This document shows, piece after piece, positions 2,604 to 11,497 of a DNA stretch of 11,637 nucleotides (position 1 is the stretch's first letter; the number at the start of each line of letters is the position of its first letter). The notes beneath the pieces were generated by a model, which was not told the origin of the DNA, made no database searches, and saw only the letters and a list, made by a program, of their open reading frames with translations. Both the position numbers and the translations under genes were made by a program. This stretch comes from Acidobacteriota bacterium (lineage in GTDB: Bacteria > Acidobacteriota > Thermoanaerobaculia > Multivoradales > UBA5704): the NCBI GenBank assembly GCA_040005235.1, contig JBDTZG010000110.1:1-11637 (forward strand), in the 5' to 3' direction.

Positions 2604-3089
2604 TCAAGAGAACCGGGTCCGAATGTATTCCTTGGCGCTGTCCGGAGGAAGTTTCACCGTGCCAGGCCCGCTCCGCACGAAGAAATCCCCCTCTGGGCTC
2701 GCCTCCAGCCCCTTCCACTTGAGGAATACCGGCTCCAGGCTCCGCTGGCAGCTCACGACGCATACGGTCTTGCCCTGCACGATCTGGGTCTTCGGATCGA
2801 TGCAGGTACCGGCGCGGTCGTTGAGCCCGTTCCGGACGACCTGCGCCAGGTGGCGCATGAACTTGTCGTCGCTCTCCAGCCCGTCGCGCTCTATGCCGAC
2901 GATTCCCCCATCGTCCGCCACCCCGATCAGTAGATCGCCGCCTTCGGTGTTGAGAAACGCGGCGACCGTCTTGAGAACGGCGTGGGTAACGAACTTATCG
3001 TCCTGCCGGTCTTCTTTGAGGCTCCAGCGCAACGTGGACTTAAACTCCAAGGTCTTCGACTCGCCACGCCGAATCAGCTCCTCGGCGTT
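2604..3089 (-). other. Schlafen/AlbA_2 (PF04326-like) putative ribonuclease domain of HsdR, aa ~1016-1176
   Basis: ELIRRGESKTLEFKS, LKTVAAFLNTEGGDLLIGVADDGGIVG and terminal FFVRSGPGT match the AlbA_2 pattern E-x4-EFK ... AFxNxxGGxLxIGVxDxG ... xxRxG. Confidence 0.88.
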
Positions 3090-6000
3090 GCGATGGGCGC
3101 GCAGGTATTGATCGAAGAGGAAGTTCTTGACCACATCACCAAAAGCCCGATCGTCGGTGATCCGCTTATAGAGGTCGAAGTTCGAGTCGACGATCTCCTG
3201 GATCACGTTTTCGACCTTCTGATCGAAAGTGAGCCGGACGTTTTCCCGCGTGTTGACCCGGGCCGCCGCATCGAGCGCGGCGTCTCCATCGAGCATCTCC
3301 ATCATCTGACCGAACGTGACGCGATGCTCCGGTCCGAGATTGAGCCCGAAGCGCTCATTCAACTCGGAGAGGATTCGGGAAAGCATCTCCACCTCCTCCG
3401 CCTCTACACGCTGCACGCCTTTGGTGCTCACGGGCTCCAGTACACCCGGGCGGCGTTCCAGAACGATCTGTCCCCCGCCAGTCTGCTGGAGGCGATAGGA
3501 CTCCATGTCGATGTTCGCCTGTACTTCGAGCGGCAGGGTTTCTTCAGCTTTGGATACGAAGCGCCTCAGGTAGCGTGCGAAGACGTAGAGCTTTTCCAAA
3601 TCGGCGTCGGCAAAGGTGAGCACCTGGGCGAGGAAGGCGTAGAGCCGCAGGTAGTCGGTGAGCTGCCCCCGAAAGTCCTGCTGCTCCTCGTTTCCGAGCG
3701 CTCGAAACCGTTCGGCCACCGGGGCGAGAAGAGAGTAGAGCCGGTCCTGGGGAACCTTCCGGTCGAAGTAGGCCTGGGCGAAGGCGTCCACCTCGGCCTC
3801 GGTATAGACCGGAAATGCGCCGAGCCCCGACTGCCGCTCGTAGAGCAGGTTCGGGTCGGTCCCCTCCGAAAGCAAGGTCGTCTCGAAGTAGGGTTCGAAA
3901 GCCGCCCGGATCTCGTCCGCCTCGTTGGCGAAGTCAAGGACCAGGGTGCCCGTCTTCTCGGGAGCCAAAGTACGGTTCAGTCTCGAGAGGGTCTGAACGG
4001 CGTTGACGCCGCCGAGCTTTTTGTCCACGTACATGGTGTGGAGCAACGGCTGGTCGAACCCGGTCTGGAACTTGTTGGCGACGATCAAGAAGCGATACTC
4101 GGAGCGCTCGAAGGTCTTGGCGGTCTGCGTTTCACCGATCGTCGCGGACTCGCCTTCCGAGTTCATCTTCGACTCGGTGTAGTCCTTGCCCCCGTCCGAC
4201 ACGGTACCGGAGAAGGCCACCAGCGCCTTCCACGGGTAGCCCCTCTCCGCGAGGTACTTGTCCACCGCCCGCTTGTAGCGCACCGCGTGAAGGCGCGAGC
4301 GGGTGACGATCATCGCCTTGGCCCGGCCGCCGATTTCACCCTGCACCTTGGCCGCGAAGTGCTCTATGCAGATCTTTACCTTCTCGGCGATCGCGTGCGG
4401 GTGCAGCTCGACGAACGACTTGAGCAGGTATTCGGCTTTCTTCCGGTCGTAATGCGGGTCGTCCTCGATCGTCTTCAAAAGCCGCCAATAGGCCTGGTAC
4501 GTCGTGTAGTTCGTCAGCACGTCGAGGATGAATTCCTCCTCGATCGCCTGCCGCATGCTGTAGAGGTGGAAGGGCTCGAACTTACCGTCTTCTCGCTTCC
4601 TGCCGAACAGCTCCAGCGTCTTGGGCTTGGGGGTGGCGGTGAAGGCGAAAAGCGAGAGATTCGGGAGGTGGCCGCGTTTGACCGCCTCCGCCAGGGCAAG
4701 ATTGTCCACCTCGTTTCCGCCAGGTTCGGCGGCGGCGTCTTCCCGCTCAGCCTCGCTCAGATCTCTTGCTGCGAGGATTACCTTGAGCGGCTTGGTGCTC
4801 TCGCCCGACTGGGAGGAATGTGCCTCATCGACGATGACGGCGAAGCGCGTGCCGGGCAGCTTGCCGATTCCTTCGGCGATCACCGGGAACTTCTGGAGGG
4901 TGGTGACGATGATGGTCTTACCCGATTCGAGGGCTTCTTTGAGCTGGCGTGACGTCTTGTCGATGTTTTCGACCACCCCGAGCTGCTGCTCGAACTGGCG
5001 CATGGTGGTCTGGAGCTGGCGGTCGAGGATGCGCCGGTCGGTGACGACGACGATCGAATCGAAAACGCGCCGATCCCAAACGTCGTGGAGGGTCGAGAGC
5101 TGGTGGGCGAGCCACGCGATGGTGAAGCTCTTGCCGCTGCCGGCCGAGTGCTGAATCAGATAGCGCTGCCCCGCGCCCATTCCACGCGCGTCGGCCACCA
5201 GTTTTCGCACGCAGTCGAGCTGCTGGTAGCGTGGAAACATCAAGATGCGCTCGCCGGTCTTCTGCCCCTTGTCGTCTTCCGGCTCGACCTCGTGAATGAA
5301 CTGGCGCACCAGGTCGAGCACGCTGTCCCGCGCCCAGGTTTCGTCCCACAGGTAGCCGGTGGCGTAGCCTTTCTGCGTGGGCGGCACGGGTGGATTTCCG
5401 GCGCCGCCGTATTTCCCCTGGTTGAAGGGAAGAAAGCGCGTCTTGTCGCCCGCGAGCCGGGTGGCGACGTAAACCAGCTCCGGATCGACCGCGAAGTGCG
5501 CGAGGCAGCGGCCGTAGGCGAGAAGCGGCTCGCGCGGGTCGCGGTTGGTTTTGTACTGGCGGATCGCGTCGTCGACGTGCTGGCCGGAGAGCCGGTTTTT
5601 GAGCTCGGCGGTGAAGATCGGAATCCCGTTCAGGAGGAGCCCCAGATCGAGGCTGTTTTCGTTCTTCGTGCTGTAGCGGAGCTGGCGCACCACGGCGAAC
5701 AGGTTCGCGGCGTAAAGGCTCCTCGTCTCTTCGTTGAGCCCGCTCGCGGGCCGGAAGTAGGCGAGCCGGAACTTGACGCCCGAATCTTTGATTCCGTTGC
5801 GCAGCACGTCGAGCGCCCCGCGCCGCTCGATCTCGGAGGCGAGCCGCCGAAGGAACTGCTCCCTCACCGCCGCGCCGTGGTGCTGCGCGAGCTTTTTCCA
5901 CTCCTTCGGCTGGGTGGCGAGCACGAAGTCCATCACGTCGCGAGGCAGCAGGCAGAGCGCGCGGTCGTACTCGTCCGGCGTACGCTTCCGATAGCCGCCC

Positions 6001-6134
6001 GGTGGGTAATCACCGAAAGGAGGCGCCGTCTCGCGCACCACGGATGCGTCTTCCATGTAGGCATCCGGACCGTACCGAAGCAGCGTACGCTCGATCGCCT
6101 CCTCGAAAGAAAGTTCGGAGATGACAGGGCTCAT
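2604..6134 (-). CDS. hsdR: Type I restriction enzyme R subunit with C-terminal Schlafen/AlbA_2 domain fusion, 1176 aa
   Basis: Nuclease motif LDLGLLLNGIPIFTAELKN; SF2 translocase motifs HSAGSGKS, DEAH, FTATPK, FQTGFDQP, QTLSRLNR; ATGA overlap with hsdS stop (6131-6134); extra domain at aa ~1016-1176. Confidence 0.96.
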   Translation of the reverse strand: MSPVISELSFEEAIERTLLRYGPDAYMEDASVVRETAPPFGDYPPGGYRKRTPDEYDRALCLLPRDVMDFVLATQPKEWKKLAQHHGAAVREQFLRRLASEIERRGALDVLRNGIKDSGVKFRLAYFRPASGLNEETRSLYAANLFAVVRQLRYSTKNENSLDLGLLLNGIPIFTAELKNRLSGQHVDDAIRQYKTNRDPREPLLAYGRCLAHFAVDPELVYVATRLAGDKTRFLPFNQGKYGGAGNPPVPPTQKGYATGYLWDETWARDSVLDLVRQFIHEVEPEDDKGQKTGERILMFPRYQQLDCVRKLVADARGMGAGQRYLIQHSAGSGKSFTIAWLAHQLSTLHDVWDRRVFDSIVVVTDRRILDRQLQTTMRQFEQQLGVVENIDKTSRQLKEALESGKTIIVTTLQKFPVIAEGIGKLPGTRFAVIVDEAHSSQSGESTKPLKVILAARDLSEAEREDAAAEPGGNEVDNLALAEAVKRGHLPNLSLFAFTATPKPKTLELFGRKREDGKFEPFHLYSMRQAIEEEFILDVLTNYTTYQAYWRLLKTIEDDPHYDRKKAEYLLKSFVELHPHAIAEKVKICIEHFAAKVQGEIGGRAKAMIVTRSRLHAVRYKRAVDKYLAERGYPWKALVAFSGTVSDGGKDYTESKMNSEGESATIGETQTAKTFERSEYRFLIVANKFQTGFDQPLLHTMYVDKKLGGVNAVQTLSRLNRTLAPEKTGTLVLDFANEADEIRAAFEPYFETTLLSEGTDPNLLYERQSGLGAFPVYTEAEVDAFAQAYFDRKVPQDRLYSLLAPVAERFRALGNEEQQDFRGQLTDYLRLYAFLAQVLTFADADLEKLYVFARYLRRFVSKAEETLPLEVQANIDMESYRLQQTGGGQIVLERRPGVLEPVSTKGVQRVEAEEVEMLSRILSELNERFGLNLGPEHRVTFGQMMEMLDGDAALDAAARVNTRENVRLTFDQKVENVIQEIVDSNFDLYKRITDDRAFGDVVKNFLFDQYLRAHRNAEELIRRGESKTLEFKSTLRWSLKEDRQDDKFVTHAVLKTVAAFLNTEGGDLLIGVADDGGIVGIERDGLESDDKFMRHLAQVVRNGLNDRAGTCIDPKTQIVQGKTVCVVSCQRSLEPVFLKWKGLEASPEGDFFVRSGPGTVKLPPDSAKEYIRTRFS

Positions 6135-7573
6135 GCGGCTTCCCCTCGCACGTCGATCTTGCCGGTCACCGCGGCGGAGATCAGGGCGGTGCGGAGTTCT
6201 TTGAGGCGGTTGATGGCCTCGCGGACCTTGGCGATGAGGGCGTCGATCCTCGCCGTCTGGCTAGCGATCCCGACGACGATTTGATCTTGCTCACGGAGGC
6301 CTGGCATCGGCATCGGTAGGTTCCGGAGCTTTGTGCTGTTGGTCGACGCAAGGTTCGTGGATTGCTTGGACGTTGCCGTGAAGTAGGCTCGCCCATAGCC
6401 GCTGCTCATCGCAAACGCCAAGTAGCGAGGGCTAAGGACGTCACGTCGCGGGCGCACCGCAAAGATGTGATTTTGGTGCAAACACCCTGAAATCTGGCCT
6501 TCCCAGACATGCCCACGTCCGAGTTTGTCGAAGTCGCCGCCTTCGGTCATCAACACGTCGCCCTCTCGGAGTTCGTAGCGAGGCGCTTCATGCACGGGTA
6601 TTTCGATTTCTGCAATATCCTGCAGAGCGAGATACCCATCCTGCACGTTGGCTACCCGGAGGTAAGGACGCCCTGCCAAGTTACCGCCTTCATAGTTCTT
6701 TCCGAGCGTCACACCTGTCTGAAGCACGCTAACAGCCTTCAGTGGCTTCACCTCCCAATGCGCCGGAATCTCCCCCAGCCACTCGACACCGGAGTCCTTC
6801 ATGGGGACGTTTGGGTCAAGGCCCTTGGTGACGGCGCGGGTGATGAGGGCGGTACGCTGTTCTTGGAGCAGCTCGATCAGGCGCTCTTTCTTCGCCACCA
6901 GCGCATCGATTCGCGCGGTCTCTCGGTCTAAAAATGCGGCAATGGGGCGCTGCTCGGGCTCCGGAGGTAGCCCGATGGCTTCGCTTAGGTAGCTAGAACT
7001 GTCGAGGTTCTGAATACCGGTGCTCTGCTTGATGTGGCGCGTATTGATGCGTTGTGCATAGAGAGCAGCATGGAGGTAGCTCTGGTACCGAGGGTCATGT
7101 CCATCGGCTATCGTGACGCGCGCCACAAAGTTTGAGCAGACTGCGGGCACCTCATGATCGAAGAGGACCACCGCTCCTACCGGCTGATTCTCACCACCAC
7201 CGGATTTCTCCAGCAGAAGGTCGCCCGATCGAAGACCACGCGCGCTGACAACCTCCGGATCGATTGATCGCATGGTGGGTTCTTCAATTTCGACCCTGAA
7301 GGCATTTCGATTGAAGTCGGCGACTCGCACGCAAACGATGTCGTGGACCCCATCAGGCTCATCGCCCCAAACGCCGTTCTGGCAGCTCGTCACAGTTGAC
7401 CGCAGCCGCCGAACCTCCCAGCCCGCTGGAATCTCTCCCAGCCACTCGACGCTGGAGTCCTTGTACGCCGCGTACGGCTTGTACCGCCGCGGCCTCGCGG
7501 AATGCTCAGCGCTATTCGTCCCCCTCGTGTGAAGGTCACCTGCGCGCGAGGGACGATGAGAAGGGGCACTCAT
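6131..7573 (-). CDS. hsdS: Type I R-M specificity subunit S, 480 aa
   Basis: Two TRDs with duplicated conserved regions (YKDSSVEWLGEIPAGWEV / MKDSGVEWLGEIPAHWEV; TARIDAL...RTALI..AVT twice). Start ATG 7571-7573 overlaps abiEii stop (ATGA) with upstream GGAAGGA; the 7828 start in the ORF track overlaps abiEii and is unlikely. Confidence 0.95.
   Translation of the reverse strand: MSAPSHRPSRAGDLHTRGTNSAEHSARPRRYKPYAAYKDSSVEWLGEIPAGWEVRRLRSTVTSCQNGVWGDEPDGVHDIVCVRVADFNRNAFRVEIEEPTMRSIDPEVVSARGLRSGDLLLEKSGGGENQPVGAVVLFDHEVPAVCSNFVARVTIADGHDPRYQSYLHAALYAQRINTRHIKQSTGIQNLDSSSYLSEAIGLPPEPEQRPIAAFLDRETARIDALVAKKERLIELLQEQRTALITRAVTKGLDPNVPMKDSGVEWLGEIPAHWEVKPLKAVSVLQTGVTLGKNYEGGNLAGRPYLRVANVQDGYLALQDIAEIEIPVHEAPRYELREGDVLMTEGGDFDKLGRGHVWEGQISGCLHQNHIFAVRPRRDVLSPRYLAFAMSSGYGRAYFTATSKQSTNLASTNSTKLRNLPMPMPGLREQDQIVVGIASQTARIDALIAKVREAINRLKELRTALISAAVTGKIDVRGEAA
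6765..7462. repeat. Intragenic direct repeat pair in hsdS (6765-6799 and 7428-7462)
   Basis: GGAATCTCCCCCAGCCACTCGACACCGGAGTCCTT vs GGAATCTCTCCCAGCCACTCGACGCTGGAGTCCTT, 32/35 identical; encodes KDS(G/S)VEWLGEIP preceding each TRD. Confidence 0.85.
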
Positions 7574-8511
7574 AGCTTTCCTTCCTGCGCAATAGGTGAC
7601 AGCTCCCAAGGACCTCCAGGCAACCAAGTACGCTCGAACGATGTGCCCAGCACGATGCTTTCTCTCACGGGGCCAAGGAACTGCGCGATTCGCTCGCCGA
7701 TGACCTCGAACTGCGCGGGCGGCGAAACCAACACAGTGCCCGCTTTGAGGTAGTTCCGCCAGCGAGTTTCCAGCTCCGGCCCTTGATAGAAGGCCGTAGT
7801 GAGGACGGGCGGCGTTCCAACCGTCCATGGAGTTTCCCGGCGCCCGAAGCAGGCGGAGACGGCCTGCCGTAGCAACGGGCCATCGAACGCGAACGCACCG
7901 GCGAGCGCCCAGATATCGTGAAAATCTTTCATTCGGCTATTGTTCGTGCCGAGCTTGACCATGGCTTCGAACTTCTCGGCAACCGCCGCCTCGCGCGGAT
8001 AGGCGCGGAGCCGGGGCGGGGGTAAACCTTCCAGCAAGGTCGGATAGACGATCTCCTCCGGCCCGGTCACCAACGCATCTCCGAAGCCAACGTCGAGCTT
8101 TACCGAGATACGTGCGCTGCCCAGACTCGCGCGGAAGCGGGCACTCTTTCCCTTGTATTCTTCATTGGGACGGATCGTTTCAACCACCAGATTGGAAAGG
8201 TCGAACCGGATTCCGTCCTCGGGGCAAGGTACGGCACAAATCTCGGTCACCAGCGATCGGATGGCTTCCTCGTCCGCCGGTCCCGAAGCCAAGACGTCCA
8301 TATCCCGCGTCGCCCGATAGGGATCGGAAAGCCAGACCGAGAGCAGGCTCGCCCCTTTGAGGATGCAGCGGTTTCGAGCCTTCGATTCGCCGAGGCGGTA
8401 GAGGAGGCGCTCGGCTGCGAAACGCGTCAGGGTCAGCTCAAACTCCTCCCCCTTCGCTTTCGCCTGATTCAGGAGGCGAGCCCGAATCGAAGCTGCGACA
8501 TCGGGGCTCAT
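7570..8511 (-). CDS. abiEii: AbiEii/AbiGii-family nucleotidyltransferase toxin (type IV TA), 313 aa
   Basis: MSPDVAASIRARLLN start, ERLLYRL, ILKGASLL, RATRDMD (DxD), AEKFEAM, NSRMKDFHDI motifs; ATG 8509-8511 with GAGGT SD and ATGA overlap with the antitoxin stop. Confidence 0.92.
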   Translation of the reverse strand: MSPDVAASIRARLLNQAKAKGEEFELTLTRFAAERLLYRLGESKARNRCILKGASLLSVWLSDPYRATRDMDVLASGPADEEAIRSLVTEICAVPCPEDGIRFDLSNLVVETIRPNEEYKGKSARFRASLGSARISVKLDVGFGDALVTGPEEIVYPTLLEGLPPPRLRAYPREAAVAEKFEAMVKLGTNNSRMKDFHDIWALAGAFAFDGPLLRQAVSACFGRRETPWTVGTPPVLTTAFYQGPELETRWRNYLKAGTVLVSPPAQFEVIGERIAQFLGPVRESIVLGTSFERTWLPGGPWELSPIAQEGKL

Positions 8512-9146
8512 ATCGACCTCATGTCGAGAGCGACGCTGAGGCGGCGCGACGGAAGAACCTCCAGCACGCGCGAGAGCTCCGCGATCGTGGTCTTCCGCTG
8601 GCGTAGGGCATCCTGCAGCGCCTCGATCGCCACATCGGCCCCAACGAGGCGCTCGAACCGAAAGCAATCCACTACGGTTCGCGCAGGCGAGGTGATCCGG
8701 CCCGGAACCCCCTCGAACTCCATCTTCTGGACGCCAAAGATCCATGCAGGCCCACTGAAGCGGACGACGCGTAGCTTGATCTCGGGGAGCCGAGGTTCAT
8801 GCGCCTTGTGCGGAATAGCGAGCCAGACCGCCGCCGGGGATTGGGTGCCGATCTCGTGAAAACGCAGTGCCGTGAGCAGGCAGAAGATGCTATTAGGCAC
8901 TCGCGCGCTGACCATGCCCAGGGAGTAGTTCTCGGTCGGCTCGGCGTCCGCAAACCGATAGAGGCCGCGACCGATCCGCTCGACACTCCCCGATCGCACG
9001 AGAGCCGGGAGCTGGTCGCGGGTCAGACCCGCTTCTTCAAGCTGAGTCGGACGGAAGAAAGCACCGATCCCGGCGGCATGAAGACGCCCCAGGGGATCCA
9101 GGGTAGGTTCAAGATGACCCGTTTTGTCGGCATGGTAGTCGTTCAT
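8508..9146 (-). CDS. abiEi: AbiEi-family antitoxin / transcriptional regulator (type IV TA), 212 aa (alternative TTG start at 9164)
   Basis: N-terminal wHTH-like segment ending ERIGRGLY, CLLTALRFHEIGTQSP, ITSPARTVVDCFR, DVAIEAL; directly upstream of and coupled to the AbiEii gene. Confidence 0.9.
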   Translation of the reverse strand: MNDYHADKTGHLEPTLDPLGRLHAAGIGAFFRPTQLEEAGLTRDQLPALVRSGSVERIGRGLYRFADAEPTENYSLGMVSARVPNSIFCLLTALRFHEIGTQSPAAVWLAIPHKAHEPRLPEIKLRVVRFSGPAWIFGVQKMEFEGVPGRITSPARTVVDCFRFERLVGADVAIEALQDALRQRKTTIAELSRVLEVLPSRRLSVALDMRSI

Positions 9147-9289
9147 GCCGACAATATGCGTCAATTGAACCGCAGAGTCAACTCAAAACGTCGGCATGGA
9201 CTTCGCTCATGCCGAGACTTTGCGTCATCCGGCCATCACCAGGGTAGTAAATGTCGGCAGATACGCACAAGTGCCGACATTTTGCGTCA
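9125..9289. repeat. Three 38-39-bp palindromic direct repeats, candidate AbiEi operators
   Basis: Units 9125-9163, 9189-9227, 9252-9289, consensus GTCGGCA-N12/13-TGCCGA(C/G)-N4-TGCGTCA; perfect IR arms TTGTCGGCATG/CATGCCGACAA, TCGGCATG/CATGCCGA, AAATGTCGGCA/TGCCGACATTT; units 1 and 2 are 31/39 identical. Confidence 0.88.
9153..9181 (-). promoter_or_regulatory. Sigma70-type promoter for abiEi-abiEii-hsdS-hsdR, probably leaderless
   Basis: Minus strand TTGACT (9181-9176) - 17 nt - CATATT (9158-9153) - 6 nt - ATG (9146); no SD between -10 and ATG. Confidence 0.65.
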
Positions 9290-11446
9290 TCCCGCCGCCA
9301 CTCCCCCCGTCACCTCGGCCAGCATCCGCAGGATGTCGCTCTCGATCCCGCGGATGTCCGCTTCGATCTCCTCCAACGGGCGGGGCGGCGTGTAACGGTA
9401 GAAATAGCGGTTGAAGTTGATCTCGTAGCCCACCAGGCCGACGTGGCCGTCTTTCGGGTCGCGCCTACTCGTGTCGATCCAGGCGTCCGGCACATGCGGC
9501 TTCACCTCGCGATCAAAGAACGCGCGCACACTGGCCGGCCGCCCCTCGGCATCCACCGGATCGGCGCCCACGGGAAGGGGCACGCTTTCCGTGTCGCGCA
9601 GCTCCGGATCGGGCTCGGGGTTGCCGTCCTTGTCGAGACAGATCTCGGCGTTCTCATCCCTCTCGGAGAGCGCCGAGAGGATCGCCTTTCGCACCGGGGC
9701 CGGGAGCTTCAAGCCTGCCTTCTTCGTGGCGGCGTCCAGCTTCTGTTCGAACTCGTCGCGGTCCTGGATCAAGGTCTTCGGCAGGCCGCGCAGCAGCTTG
9801 CGGACCGCCTCTTGCAGCGCACGGCCTTCCGCGATCTCTTGGGCGGCGGCGGCACCCTTCCTCTTCGATTGGGCGAGCGCCTGGAAGCCCTTTTCGTCAT
9901 CGAGCCTTGAAACCCGCTCCGGGCTGGCTTGGAAGTTGAGGCGCAGCGGGCGCTCGACCGTGATCTTGCGGAAGCCGAAATGCGTCGTCGGGAAGATCCG
10001 GCTGACCACCGCTTCCTCGTCCCTCTTGTCTTTCGTGACCTTGCCCGTCTCGCCGTCCTTGAACCGGGAGAGGATCTTTACGATGTCCAGCGCGCGCGGG
10101 AGCGGGATCTCGCGCCGCTTGTCGCCGAGGCTCTTCTTCATCGGCTGCCAGAAGGAGGTCGCGTCGATGAGCTGCACCTTGCCCCGGCGGGCCGGGGTCT
10201 TGCGGTTCGTCACCACCCACACGTAAGTGGCGATGCCGGTGTTGTAGAAGAGCTGCTCCGGCAGGGCGATCAACGCCTCCAGCAGATCTTGCTCCAGGAT
10301 GAACCGGCGGATCTCACTCTCGCCGCTTCCGGCGTCTCCGGTGAAGAGCGGCGAGCCGTTCATGATGATGGCGATCCGCGAGCCTCCCTCCTTGATTTCC
10401 TTGGCGTGCGCCAGCATGTGGAGCAGAAACAGGAGCTGACCGTCGCTGATTCGGGGTAGCCCCGGGCCGAAGCGGCCCGACGTGCCGCGATCGTGCTCGG
10501 CGCGCACGACGTCTTCGTCGCGCTTCCAGTCCTTGCCATAGGGAGGGTTCGCGATCAGGTAGTCGAACTTCATGCCGGCGTGGCGATCGTTCGAGAGCGT
10601 ACTGCCGAACGTGATGTGGTCCGCGTCGCGGCCGGTCGGATCTTTCATGTAGAGGTCCGACTTCGAGACCGCCCAGGTCTCCGGGTTCACCTCTTGCCCG
10701 AAGAGGTGGATCTCCGCACCCTCGTGGATCGCCGGGCGCAGCAGGTCGCCGTTCTTCCGCAGCCCCACCGTGATGTGCTCCTTGGTGATCATCAGCATGC
10801 CGCCCGAGCCGCAGCACGGGTCGTAGACGCTGCAGACCACACCCGGCTTGCGAATGCGCGCCTCGTCCCCCGCGAGCATCAGATCCACCATCAGATGAAC
10901 AACGTCGCGCGGGGTGAAGTGCTCGCCGGGGTTTTCGTTCAATGCCTCGTTGAACTTGCGGATCAGCTCCTCGAAGATCGTCCCCATCGTGGGGTTGTCG
11001 ACCCGGTTCGTGTGCAGGTCCACGTTCTTGAACCGCTCCAGTACCTGGAACAGCAGACCCGACTCGTCGAGCTTGCTGATCGTGTTGTCGAAGTCGAACT
11101 TCTCCAGCACCTCGCGCATGTTCGGGCTGAAACCCGCGATGTAGTTCCGCAGATTGGCGGCGAGGTGCGGTGCGTCCGCCAGAAGCTTCTCGAAGTCGTA
11201 GCGGGAGGTGTTGTAGAAGGCGAAGCCGGAAGCTTTCCGGAGCTGCGCGCCGAGATCTTCAAGCCCCTTCCCCTTCAACTCCCCCTGGCGCTTGAGGACC
11301 TTTTCTTTGTTTCCGGCCAGCACGCAGTCGAGGCGACGAAGGACGGTGAGCGGCAGGATCACGTCCTGATACTTGCCTCGTTTGAAGGTGTCGCGTATGA
11401 GATCCGCAACGCCCCAGAGAAAACTGACGATCTCGCTATGGTTCAC
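9287..11446 (-). CDS. hsdM: Type I R-M N6-adenine DNA methyltransferase subunit M, 719 aa
   Basis: N-terminal FLWGVADLIRD...VILPLTVLRRLD, GEHFTPRDVV, motif I YDPCCGSGGML, motif IV ANPPYG, C-terminal GYEINFNRYFY; GTG start with GAGGG SD upstream. Confidence 0.96.
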   Translation of the reverse strand: MNHSEIVSFLWGVADLIRDTFKRGKYQDVILPLTVLRRLDCVLAGNKEKVLKRQGELKGKGLEDLGAQLRKASGFAFYNTSRYDFEKLLADAPHLAANLRNYIAGFSPNMREVLEKFDFDNTISKLDESGLLFQVLERFKNVDLHTNRVDNPTMGTIFEELIRKFNEALNENPGEHFTPRDVVHLMVDLMLAGDEARIRKPGVVCSVYDPCCGSGGMLMITKEHITVGLRKNGDLLRPAIHEGAEIHLFGQEVNPETWAVSKSDLYMKDPTGRDADHITFGSTLSNDRHAGMKFDYLIANPPYGKDWKRDEDVVRAEHDRGTSGRFGPGLPRISDGQLLFLLHMLAHAKEIKEGGSRIAIIMNGSPLFTGDAGSGESEIRRFILEQDLLEALIALPEQLFYNTGIATYVWVVTNRKTPARRGKVQLIDATSFWQPMKKSLGDKRREIPLPRALDIVKILSRFKDGETGKVTKDKRDEEAVVSRIFPTTHFGFRKITVERPLRLNFQASPERVSRLDDEKGFQALAQSKRKGAAAAQEIAEGRALQEAVRKLLRGLPKTLIQDRDEFEQKLDAATKKAGLKLPAPVRKAILSALSERDENAEICLDKDGNPEPDPELRDTESVPLPVGADPVDAEGRPASVRAFFDREVKPHVPDAWIDTSRRDPKDGHVGLVGYEINFNRYFYRYTPPRPLEEIEADIRGIESDILRMLAEVTGGVAAG

Positions 11447-11497
11447 CCGGTCGGCCCTCGGGGAGATCGTATACCGGCAATTGGCCGCGCAACGCCC

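Follow-up and report, generated by a model that had tools for sequence, protein, structure and literature searches.

A modular type I restriction-modification operon with a Schlafen-like HsdR tail and an exchangeable centre carrying an AbiE toxin-antitoxin cassette

Introduction

When a restriction-modification (R-M) system, a toxin-antitoxin (TA) cassette and a Schlafen domain are encoded in one operon, do they form a single unit, or are they modules that are exchanged separately? This question is raised by an 11,637-nt stretch of Acidobacteriota DNA, called the window here, which is the entire contig JBDTZG010000110.1 from a 6.2-Mb, 140-contig genome (GCA_040005235.1) and carries five large open reading frames (ORFs) arranged head to tail on the minus strand. 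The original prediction, made from the letters of this window, read them as hsdM-abiEi-abiEii-hsdS-hsdR with a Schlafen domain in HsdR, and proposed one integrated unit combining DNA restriction with two translation-arrest effectors. The gene order was confirmed by Pfam and PADLOC. From the comparison of related loci, we consider it likely that the locus is a layered, modular defence operon, in which an hsdM/hsdR backbone with a Schlafen nuclease tail encloses an exchangeable centre containing AbiE and hsdS.

The first gene, hsdM (11446-9287, minus strand, as are all genes below), starts with GTG 190 nt from the contig end and encodes a type I m6A methyltransferase subunit of 719 aa with a long C-terminal part. 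It is followed by abiEi (9146-8508; 212 aa from the ATG at 9146), a predicted antitoxin and transcriptional repressor, and abiEii (8511-7570; 313 aa), a predicted DUF1814 nucleotidyltransferase toxin. The specificity gene hsdS (7573-6131; 480 aa, two target-recognition halves) precedes hsdR (6134-2604; 1176 aa), whose product contains HSDR_N, SWI2_SNF2, ResIII, T1R_D3-like and SLFN_AlbA_2 domains. Within HsdR, we distinguish a core of residues 1-1022 (3069-6134), with the nuclease, the superfamily 2 (SF2) motor and a C-terminal helical region, from a Schlafen/AlbA_2 tail of residues ~1023-1176 (2604-3068). The boundary at 3068 is the end of the similarity to a tail-less relative, G006, described below.

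Results

AbiE holds a conserved position in a family with fused HsdR

In a search of 5.8 billion proteins with the HsdR sequence, all 8000 scored candidates were significant, and each of the best 120 of them (80-83% identity, about 1170-1200 aa) contained PF04326. These 120 proteins are named 'type I restriction enzyme R subunit', 'RNA-binding domain-containing protein' or 'putative DNA binding domain-containing protein' in their sources, and come from Pelomicrobium, Deltaproteobacteria, Longimicrobiaceae, Nevskiales, Planctomycetes, Rokubacteria, Eisenbacteria, Alphaproteobacteria and Burkholderiales. Among species-representative genomes, a peptide pattern found at least 613 stretches, of which at least 607 were confirmed by tblastn. 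The best 80 of the 607 yielded 77 loci (L008-L084); 51 of these are whole from hsdM to the hsdR start and were counted, and the other 26, cut by contig ends, were excluded.

Of the 51 loci, 44 have AbiEi between hsdM and hsdR and 41 have AbiEii there; in 38 of the latter, the match spans at least 75% of the AbiEii length in one open piece. Three loci (L055, L068, L069) have AbiEi without AbiEii, and seven (L035, L061, L062, L072, L076, L082, L083) have neither. A sister group of tail-less HsdR proteins (40-49% identity) has a different arrangement: hsdM is followed directly by hsdS in four of five genomic loci, the fifth holding 4.4 kb of cargo, and in both of two plasmid loci, and AbiE was not detectable in any of these seven. 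The locus counts and the sister group together indicate that AbiE at the hsdM-hsdS junction is a trait of the clade containing the fused HsdR, neither random nor shared by type I systems at large. The original prediction had staked its reading on the cargo of close homologues at this position not being random, and in this respect it held.

The family is patchily distributed among the closest genomes. Across 41 genomes (40 kin genomes and the source genome), an HsdR match at E<=1e-20 was found in 15. Full-length fused copies are present in the kin genomes G016 (83%), G009 (71%) and G034 (61%); the G013 copy is degraded by nine in-frame TGA codons, and pieces remain in G022, G003 and G004. Six further kin copies (42-49% identity) lack the tail, since they end near residue 1000-1018. 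In G034 (locus L170, G034:C2, 8691-19718; HsdR 62%, tail 44%), abiEi-abiEii is located directly upstream of hsdM instead. HsdR relatives were also found in 766 plasmid records, all below 60% identity (483 from Klebsiella, 512 predicted to be conjugative); none of the 15 best rows is a fused HsdR or passes residue 1046. Phages gave three weak HsdR matches, with no fused HsdR among the matches listed.

Related operons carry other guests as well, mostly in the hsdS-hsdR gap. Scanning 71 gap ORFs, we found GmrSD in six loci, Fic in six and weakly in one more, Peptidase_M78 with DUF4411 in five and a ThsB-type TIR protein in two, together with PIN, S8 peptidase (with AAA in one locus), DUF3644, DUF5655, a pPIWI-associated nuclease domain and a transposase-split AAA_13. 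The last of these belongs to a related R-M operon (L060, 3291-7655), where a DDE transposase gene interrupts it; we take AAA_13 to be the Pfam family of PrrC/RloC-type ATPases.

That the hsdM-hsdS and hsdS-hsdR junctions gather so many unrelated passengers (GmrSD, Fic, M78 with DUF4411, ThsB-TIR, PIN, the split AAA_13) speaks for a rival explanation. In it, AbiE is a selfish addiction cassette that sits on a recombination hot spot and keeps the operon stable once it has been transferred, and the tail is an accessory that binds nucleic acid, which leaves DNA restriction as the sole layer of defence. The decayed operon copies in kin genomes and the cassette swaps between near-identical backbones, described next, point the same way. 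We nevertheless regard this explanation as improbable: AbiEii keeps its catalytic motifs at a median identity of 44%, phage resistance has been reported for members of the AbiE family (PMC7725324), and the tail, discussed below, retains catalytic residues that a binder need not keep.

Backbone and cassette do not diverge together

We compared pairwise identities among the 33 loci that have all four proteins by Spearman correlation with a Mantel test (500 permutations). The median identity is 0.74 for HsdM and 0.75 for HsdR, 0.52 for AbiEi and 0.44 for AbiEii. HsdM and HsdR co-diverge (r = 0.82), as do AbiEi and AbiEii (r = 0.56), and in neither case was a value as high reached in any of the 500 permutations. 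Across the two pairs, the correlations are low: -0.04 for AbiEi with HsdM, -0.06 for AbiEi with HsdR, 0.20 for AbiEii with HsdM and 0.18 for AbiEii with HsdR. HsdS, compared in 30 loci, correlates at 0.35 with HsdM and 0.21 with HsdR. We also considered AbiE and hsdS moving as one block, which was rejected on the HsdS correlations of 0.09 with AbiEi and 0.20 with AbiEii.

The same separation is seen in the DNA of a close relative. A genome of the same genus, G006, carries the operon beside the same upstream host gene at 86.6% identity (locus L173, G006:C115, 2317-8420). Its hsdM and first operator match the window at 92.6% (9268-11479), and its hsdR core with the last 115 nt of hsdS at 89.7% (3068-6249). 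Between these two blocks (window 6250-9267) only short patches align, namely the hsdS repeats, a 184-nt part of abiEi (68%) and a 45-nt operator copy (96%). This centre of G006 contains abiEi twice (55% and 47%) and, of abiEii, a remnant of 80 residues. Its HsdR stops at residue 1024, directly before the Schlafen motif, and is thus tail-less. The parts of the operon are therefore modular and do not co-evolve.

These results bear on a third explanation, close to what the original prediction had in mind, in which the three layers are functionally coupled: AbiE, the tail or both would sense a failure of restriction, caused for example by phage anti-restriction proteins, and arrest translation, and AbiE may associate physically with M2S or R2M2S. 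Such coupling would fit the retention of AbiE at the same junction in 41-44 of the 51 loci despite sequence exchange, the second kind of linkage in G034, where AbiE lies directly upstream of hsdM, and the overlap of abiEii with the next gene in 38 of 42 loci (see below), which suggests that the toxin gene is wired into the operon. PrrC also gives a precedent within type I R-M loci (10.1101/2024.01.29.577857). True partners, however, co-diverge here (0.82 and 0.56), whereas AbiE and HsdM/HsdR do not (-0.06 to 0.20), seven of the 51 loci do without AbiE, and the cassette has its own candidate operator and promoter. We consider functional coupling unlikely. The originally proposed integrated unit, taken to mean interacting, co-evolving parts, is not supported in view of the same observations, of close AbiE relatives that stand alone, and of the absence of the tail from 4 of 50 loci and from G006.

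AbiE relatives inside and outside restriction operons

The wider context of the cassette was examined by an AbiEii-seeded metagenome search, from which we analysed the best 80 of 170 confirmed relatives. In 77 of these 80, abiEi adjoins abiEii. Where at least 400 nt of flank was available, the hsdM of the operon family lies upstream of abiEi in 23 of 43 loci and hsdS lies downstream in 35 of 59. The other contexts, from a scan of 60 flanking ORFs, include PIN and HigB, solute-binding and dehydrogenase genes, RDD/ArgJ, a prophage with terminase and capsid genes, an integrase, and a ResIII helicase with Fic; the AbiEii of the stand-alone cassettes is 53-74% identical to that of the window.

An AbiEii tree (FastTree) was built from 109 rows, 39 of them from the HsdR-seeded loci, after 10 of the 80 metagenome loci had been dropped for short or broken matches. 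Its labels, whose counts are inflated by kinship, are R-M for 80 rows, non-R-M for 16 and unknown for 13. The clade that holds the window comprises 87 rows (70 R-M, 8 non-R-M, 9 unknown), and the non-R-M label requires nine changes on the tree, at least six of them forced by starred branches. From these label counts and changes, the AbiEii lineage appears to be mainly R-M-embedded, with repeated exits or entries. The predominance of embedded copies in the clade of the window (70 of 87) can be counted for functional coupling; against it stand the cassettes found beside PIN/HigB and metabolic genes and in a prophage, and the 16 of 57 AbiEii-seeded metagenome rows with readable context that are non-R-M.

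One metagenome locus (L092, 5198-6906) has a 72% identical cassette with a 53-residue HsdM-like fragment upstream, flanked by genes for a cyclase-NACHT-FGE-sulfatase protein and for Ppx/CHAD proteins; this cassette may be a remnant of a lost R-M operon. The source genome of the window contains six further AbiEii-family matches above the Pfam cut-off (contigs C8, C11, C18, C36, C91 and C98).

The HsdR tail is a predicted Schlafen nuclease domain

The tail matches SLFN_AlbA_2 (PF04326) at HsdR residues 1025-1162 (E 2.7e-18) and contains the motif E1025-x4-E1030-x-K1032 (ESKTLEFK, 1025-1032) and GVADDG from G1071. In phmmer alignments, these motifs fall on SESASIEFK and GVDD of rat Slfn13 (5yd0) and on the same places in SLFN11 (7fex), at residues that we take to be the catalytic Glu/Glu/Asp. 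An AlphaFold model of residues 1001-1176, computed with 43 aligned tails, has a mean pLDDT of 91.5 and a pTM of 0.87. Foldseek returned 24 matches with E<=0.001, and all those listed at this cut-off are AlbA_2, Schlafen or SAMD9 proteins; ranked highest were the AlbA_2 protein DIP2311, the SAMD9 tRNase domain, SLFN13, SLFN14, SLFN11, SLFN12 and SLFN5. The modelled fold and the catalytic Ex4(E/D)xK motif thus identify the tail, at the level of sequence and predicted structure, as an AlbA_2/Schlafen domain.

Of 66 related tails, 65 retain the Ex4ExK motif. On average, the tail is more similar to that of the window than the rest of HsdR is (78.9% vs 75.2%), and it has the higher identity of the two in 38 of 52 loci. 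The tail is present in 46 of 50 checkable loci; the four without it belong to Dehalococcoidia/Chloroflexota and still have AbiE. The absence of the tail from some otherwise intact systems and the occurrence of the AlbA_2 fold in listed DNA and RNA binders could be taken in favour of a mere accessory, as the addiction-cassette explanation would have it. On the other hand, the Ex4ExK and aspartate residues, which a binder need not keep, are present in 65 of 66 tails, and the tail is more conserved than the motor. In prokaryotic Schlafens with a role in phage defence, Ex4ExK has been reported to be catalytic and required for tRNA cleavage (PMC13056530). The tail is most likely an RNA (tRNA) nuclease gated by the state of the restriction complex, judging from its sequence; tRNA as the target of the tail, or of AbiEii, is suggested by homology.

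Both AbiE proteins and their putative regulatory region are recognisable

AbiEi matches AbiEi_4 (PF13338, 2.1e-08) in Pfam and AbiEi in PADLOC (3e-57), and its homologues in several loci align from residue 1-4 with the in-frame ATG at 9146. AbiEii matches PF08843 (1.6e-40) and the PADLOC AbiEii profile (2e-97). Its best solved relative is 9hlo_B ('AbiGII'; E 8.7e-19 over residues 17-257), with matched KG[GA], DxD, GD, AEK and KDxxD motifs; KGA, RDxD, AEK and KDxxD are shared by 39 embedded copies. A putative antitoxin of the N-terminal winged-helix type, encoded upstream of the toxin, and a DUF1814 protein with catalytic motifs identify the pair as a predicted AbiE system. The catalytic motifs of both effectors put forward in the original prediction, the tail and AbiEii, are intact. 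The identification of AbiE also stood; the accompanying label, type IV TA, is contested, because a 2026 preprint reclassifies AbiE as type VII, with AbiEi binding AbiEii and inducing its auto-phosphorylation (10.64898/2026.01.19.700257).

The region between hsdM and abiEi (9115-9291, minus strand) contains three inverted repeats and a sigma-70-like promoter. The repeats are located at 9115-9134/9144-9163 (20-nt arms, 85%), 9181-9198/9208-9225 (18-nt arms, 78%) and 9249-9259/9272-9282 (11-nt arms, 100%), with their centres 62-64 nt apart, about six helical turns; the repeat search also gave a direct-repeat family here, with spacings of 64 and 62 nt. The promoter-like site (-35 TTGACT at 9181-9176, -10 CATATT at 9158-9153, minus strand) was the one site found in a scan of 8900-9400, where 0.1 is expected, and the sole site in the whole operon. 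Its -35 element overlaps the middle repeat, and the -10 element and the ATG at 9146 lie inside the last repeat. The three repeats, which overlap the promoter-like site, are candidate AbiEi operators predicted from sequence. The abiEi message may be leaderless, since the ATG comes 7 nt after the -10 element and no Shine-Dalgarno stretch precedes it.

Of 44 related loci, 38 have inverted repeats of at least 9 nt ahead of abiEi, and over 45 such regions we counted 72 repeats vs 16.25 in shuffled sequences. Autoregulation by AbiEi is stated for Streptococcus agalactiae and inferred for Serratia in PMC7725324. No terminator-like site was found after abiEii, and the genes that follow overlap, so that transcription starting here is expected to continue through hsdS and hsdR. 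The AbiEi-controlled promoter thus probably also feeds hsdS and hsdR, as far as sequence features can tell.

Gene overlaps and the ends of the operon

The ATGA overlaps claimed in the original prediction are present at abiEi/abiEii (8511-8508), abiEii/hsdS (7573-7570) and hsdS/hsdR (6134-6131), each preceded by a purine-rich, Shine-Dalgarno-like stretch. The hsdM and abiEi genes are uncoupled, with a spacer of 140 nt (9286-9147). In related loci, with the start closest to -4 chosen for each gene, which biases the counts toward the 4-nt class, a 4-nt NTGA overlap was found at 43 of 45 abiEi-to-abiEii junctions, at 25 of 42 abiEii-to-next-gene junctions (another overlap at 13 more, 38 of 42 overlapping) and at 33 of 51 hsdS-to-next-gene junctions. 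This recurrence of 4-nt overlaps in related loci is more than chance.

The promoter scan found no sigma-70-like site upstream of hsdM, the terminator scan found none 3' of hsdR, and the repeat search of the window found no long direct repeat spanning the operon. Beyond the operon, close to where the contig begins, the 16-nt sequence AAGTTCGATCTTTTTT, which ends in a run of T, is present three times (26-41, 89-104 and 110-125), with two exact copies and one at 81% identity. Among sequencing runs, a search for window 7400-9500 listed three DNA runs from one study, two of which may be the source of the sequence, and no RNA run.

HsdM, HsdS and the HsdR core are those of a distant type I system

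HsdM matches N6_Mtase (PF02384, 6.3e-55) and HsdM_N (PF12161, 4.5e-24) in Pfam and MTase_I (PDLC03029) in PADLOC (3.6e-263, residues 2-713), with an NCBIfam hsdM score below the cut-off (82.6 vs 242.75 bits). Solved HsdM chains are 445-544 aa long, so that the HsdM here is ~200 aa longer. Its last ~280 residues (about 440-719; window 9287-10129) have no Pfam match but are covered by the 661-position PDLC03029.

HsdS matches the PADLOC Specificity_I profile over its full length (6.9e-121) and Pfam Methylase_S (1.8e-09), and its gene contains two conserved 50-nt internal repeats (6750-6799 and 7413-7462), which are 86% identical and spaced by 663 nt. HsdR has the PD-(D/E)xK nuclease residues D163 and E177-L-K179 and the SF2 motor motifs GSGKS (332), DEAH (436), TATP (499) and QTLSRLNR (714), all conserved in the cores of 56 aligned relatives. 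It also scores below the TIGR00348 cut-off (218 vs 284.55 bits), and its nearest solved relative, EcoR124I HsdR, aligns in the motor alone (1e-14). The HsdM domains, the two-half HsdS and the HsdR nuclease and motor motifs together identify the backbone, by sequence, as type I R-M.

Discussion

The anatomy of the operon, its motifs, their conservation and the modular shuffling were observed in this study. From these we infer a scheme, including every enzymatic activity, the control of the tail by the restriction complex and read-through from the promoter, in which M2S1 would methylate and R2M2S1 would restrict DNA as in classical type I systems, by homology. The Schlafen tail, a probable tRNA-acting RNase by its homology to the prokaryotic Schlafen systems pSlfn and Cash and its strong conservation, would be gated by the restriction complex. 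The autonomous AbiE cassette and hsdS, with more defence cargo in relatives, would form a variable centre that recombination swaps among members of the family. AbiE would act as in stand-alone loci: AbiEi, acting on the three inverted repeats, would repress the promoter of its own gene, and it would neutralise AbiEii; on failure of this control AbiEii would halt growth by modifying tRNA 3' ends, as suggested by homology to MenT and Serratia AbiE. Relatives of AbiEii have been reported to add nucleotides to tRNA 3' ends (PMC7450476, PMC10435456, PMC7725324). AbiE would thus be an independent TA/abortive-infection layer that also stabilises the operon, and cross-talk between the layers is conceivable, though not supported here.

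Several points weigh against this reading. The retention of AbiE may reflect common ancestry and exchange among AbiE-bearing loci instead of selection; the related loci are non-independent samples, the 51 counted loci were drawn from the 80 most similar of 607 stretches, and AbiE was detected by tblastn with the window proteins, which divergent cassettes may escape. The tail could act on DNA or merely bind nucleic acid: the Foldseek table lists the Schlafen-fold SLFN5 and the SAMD9 DNA-binding domain as binders. It is also dispensable in nature, being missing from four Chloroflexota loci and from G006, whose HsdR stops at residue 1024. The promoter-like site agrees with the consensus at 9 of 12 positions, and over the 8.8-kb operon one site was found vs 1.0 expected by chance.

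The operon combines features of several known systems. As in classical type I R-M, of which EcoR124I (type IC) and EcoKI (type IA) are examples, it has the same three subunits and domains, a two-half HsdS with repeats, a C-terminal helical region in HsdR and gene overlaps that suggest coupled translation. It differs from EcoR124I and EcoKI in that HsdM and HsdR are distant (under the NCBIfam cut-offs), HsdM is longer, HsdR has an extra Schlafen domain and a TA cassette lies between hsdM and hsdS. With AbiE of S. agalactiae and Serratia and MenAT of Mycobacterium tuberculosis, it shares an AbiEi_4 antitoxin gene and, overlapping it by 4 nt, a DUF1814 toxin gene that comes second, as well as inverted repeats lying over the promoter and the transferase motifs. 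Unlike those loci, the cassette here lies inside an hsd operon with the toxin gene overlapping hsdS, and it has three candidate operators 62-64 nt apart; the S. agalactiae abiE locus has two operators.

The tail resembles pSlfn (PMC13056530) and Cash (PMC13462974), in which an AlbA_2/Schlafen domain with Ex4ExK is carried on a larger protein, possibly a sensor, and is reported to cleave tRNA on activation. In contrast to these, the domain is joined here to an entire type I restriction subunit, and the activity of the fusion is predicted from sequence. In the architecture table of PMC13056530 (supplement file 21; 5,930 proteins, 55 architectures), no row contains HSDR, ResIII or SNF2, and there is one truncated T1R_D3-like.SLFN_AlbA_2 protein of 516 aa. 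The same table holds one N6_Mtase.SLFN_AlbA_2 protein (row NZ_CP011038.1_56), a second Schlafen tie to a DNA methylase/R-M protein.

Embedded genes have been reported to be common in type I R-M loci, 96.7% of them in the same orientation and with GmrSD-like guests frequent, and PrrC to be almost exclusively embedded there (10.1101/2024.01.29.577857). The operon resembles PrrC/EcoprrI in that a type I R-M operon houses a predicted translation-directed effector that is oriented the same way, and GmrSD guests occur in its relatives too. It differs in that the RNase-like domain is covalently attached to HsdR instead of being a separate subunit. A scan of the ORFs with Pfam and PADLOC found no AAA_13 gene and no other ATPase gene besides hsdR in the operon, and no PrrC-type ABC ATPase or anticodon nuclease in the window; the likeness is in logic only. 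PrrC is kept latent under EcoprrI. HsdR-Schlafen might be the covalent counterpart of PrrC-EcoprrI and of human SLFN11, which also joins a motor to a nuclease: the tail would be silent in resting R2M2S1 and be switched on by the motor on unmodified DNA or by an anti-restriction jam, leading to translation arrest. The AbiEi-repressed promoter would then set the dose of HsdS and HsdR, with the TA pair as a control element like the C proteins of type II systems. We offer this model tentatively and consider it unlikely.

In the open-access literature, we found no description of AbiE between hsdM and hsdS or of an HsdR-Schlafen fusion. Makarova and colleagues reportedly noted COG2253/COG5340 pairs in type I R-M operons in 2011. 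The main text of the survey of embedded genes mentions neither AbiE nor Schlafen, and its supplementary embedded-gene tables may list AbiE (10.1101/2024.01.29.577857). New in this work are how large the AbiE association is, that AbiE does not diverge together with the backbone, that a close relative has naturally exchanged the cassette and lost the tail, and how the candidate operators are laid out. Surveys of reference genomes largely missed these loci because they lie in more than 600 species-representative genomes, mostly of uncultured soil and sediment phyla.

The family, which is widespread and has spread horizontally, shows how defence operons are assembled in nature: an hsdM/hsdR frame is conserved while the specificity gene and the TA cassette are exchanged independently. 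Should the tail prove to be a working RNase under the control of the restriction motor, foreign DNA and the translation of the cell itself would be targets of a single enzyme. This would connect the oldest phage defence known with the Schlafen immunity shared with animals, and would provide a simple bacterial model for the control of a Schlafen nuclease by a nucleic-acid motor.

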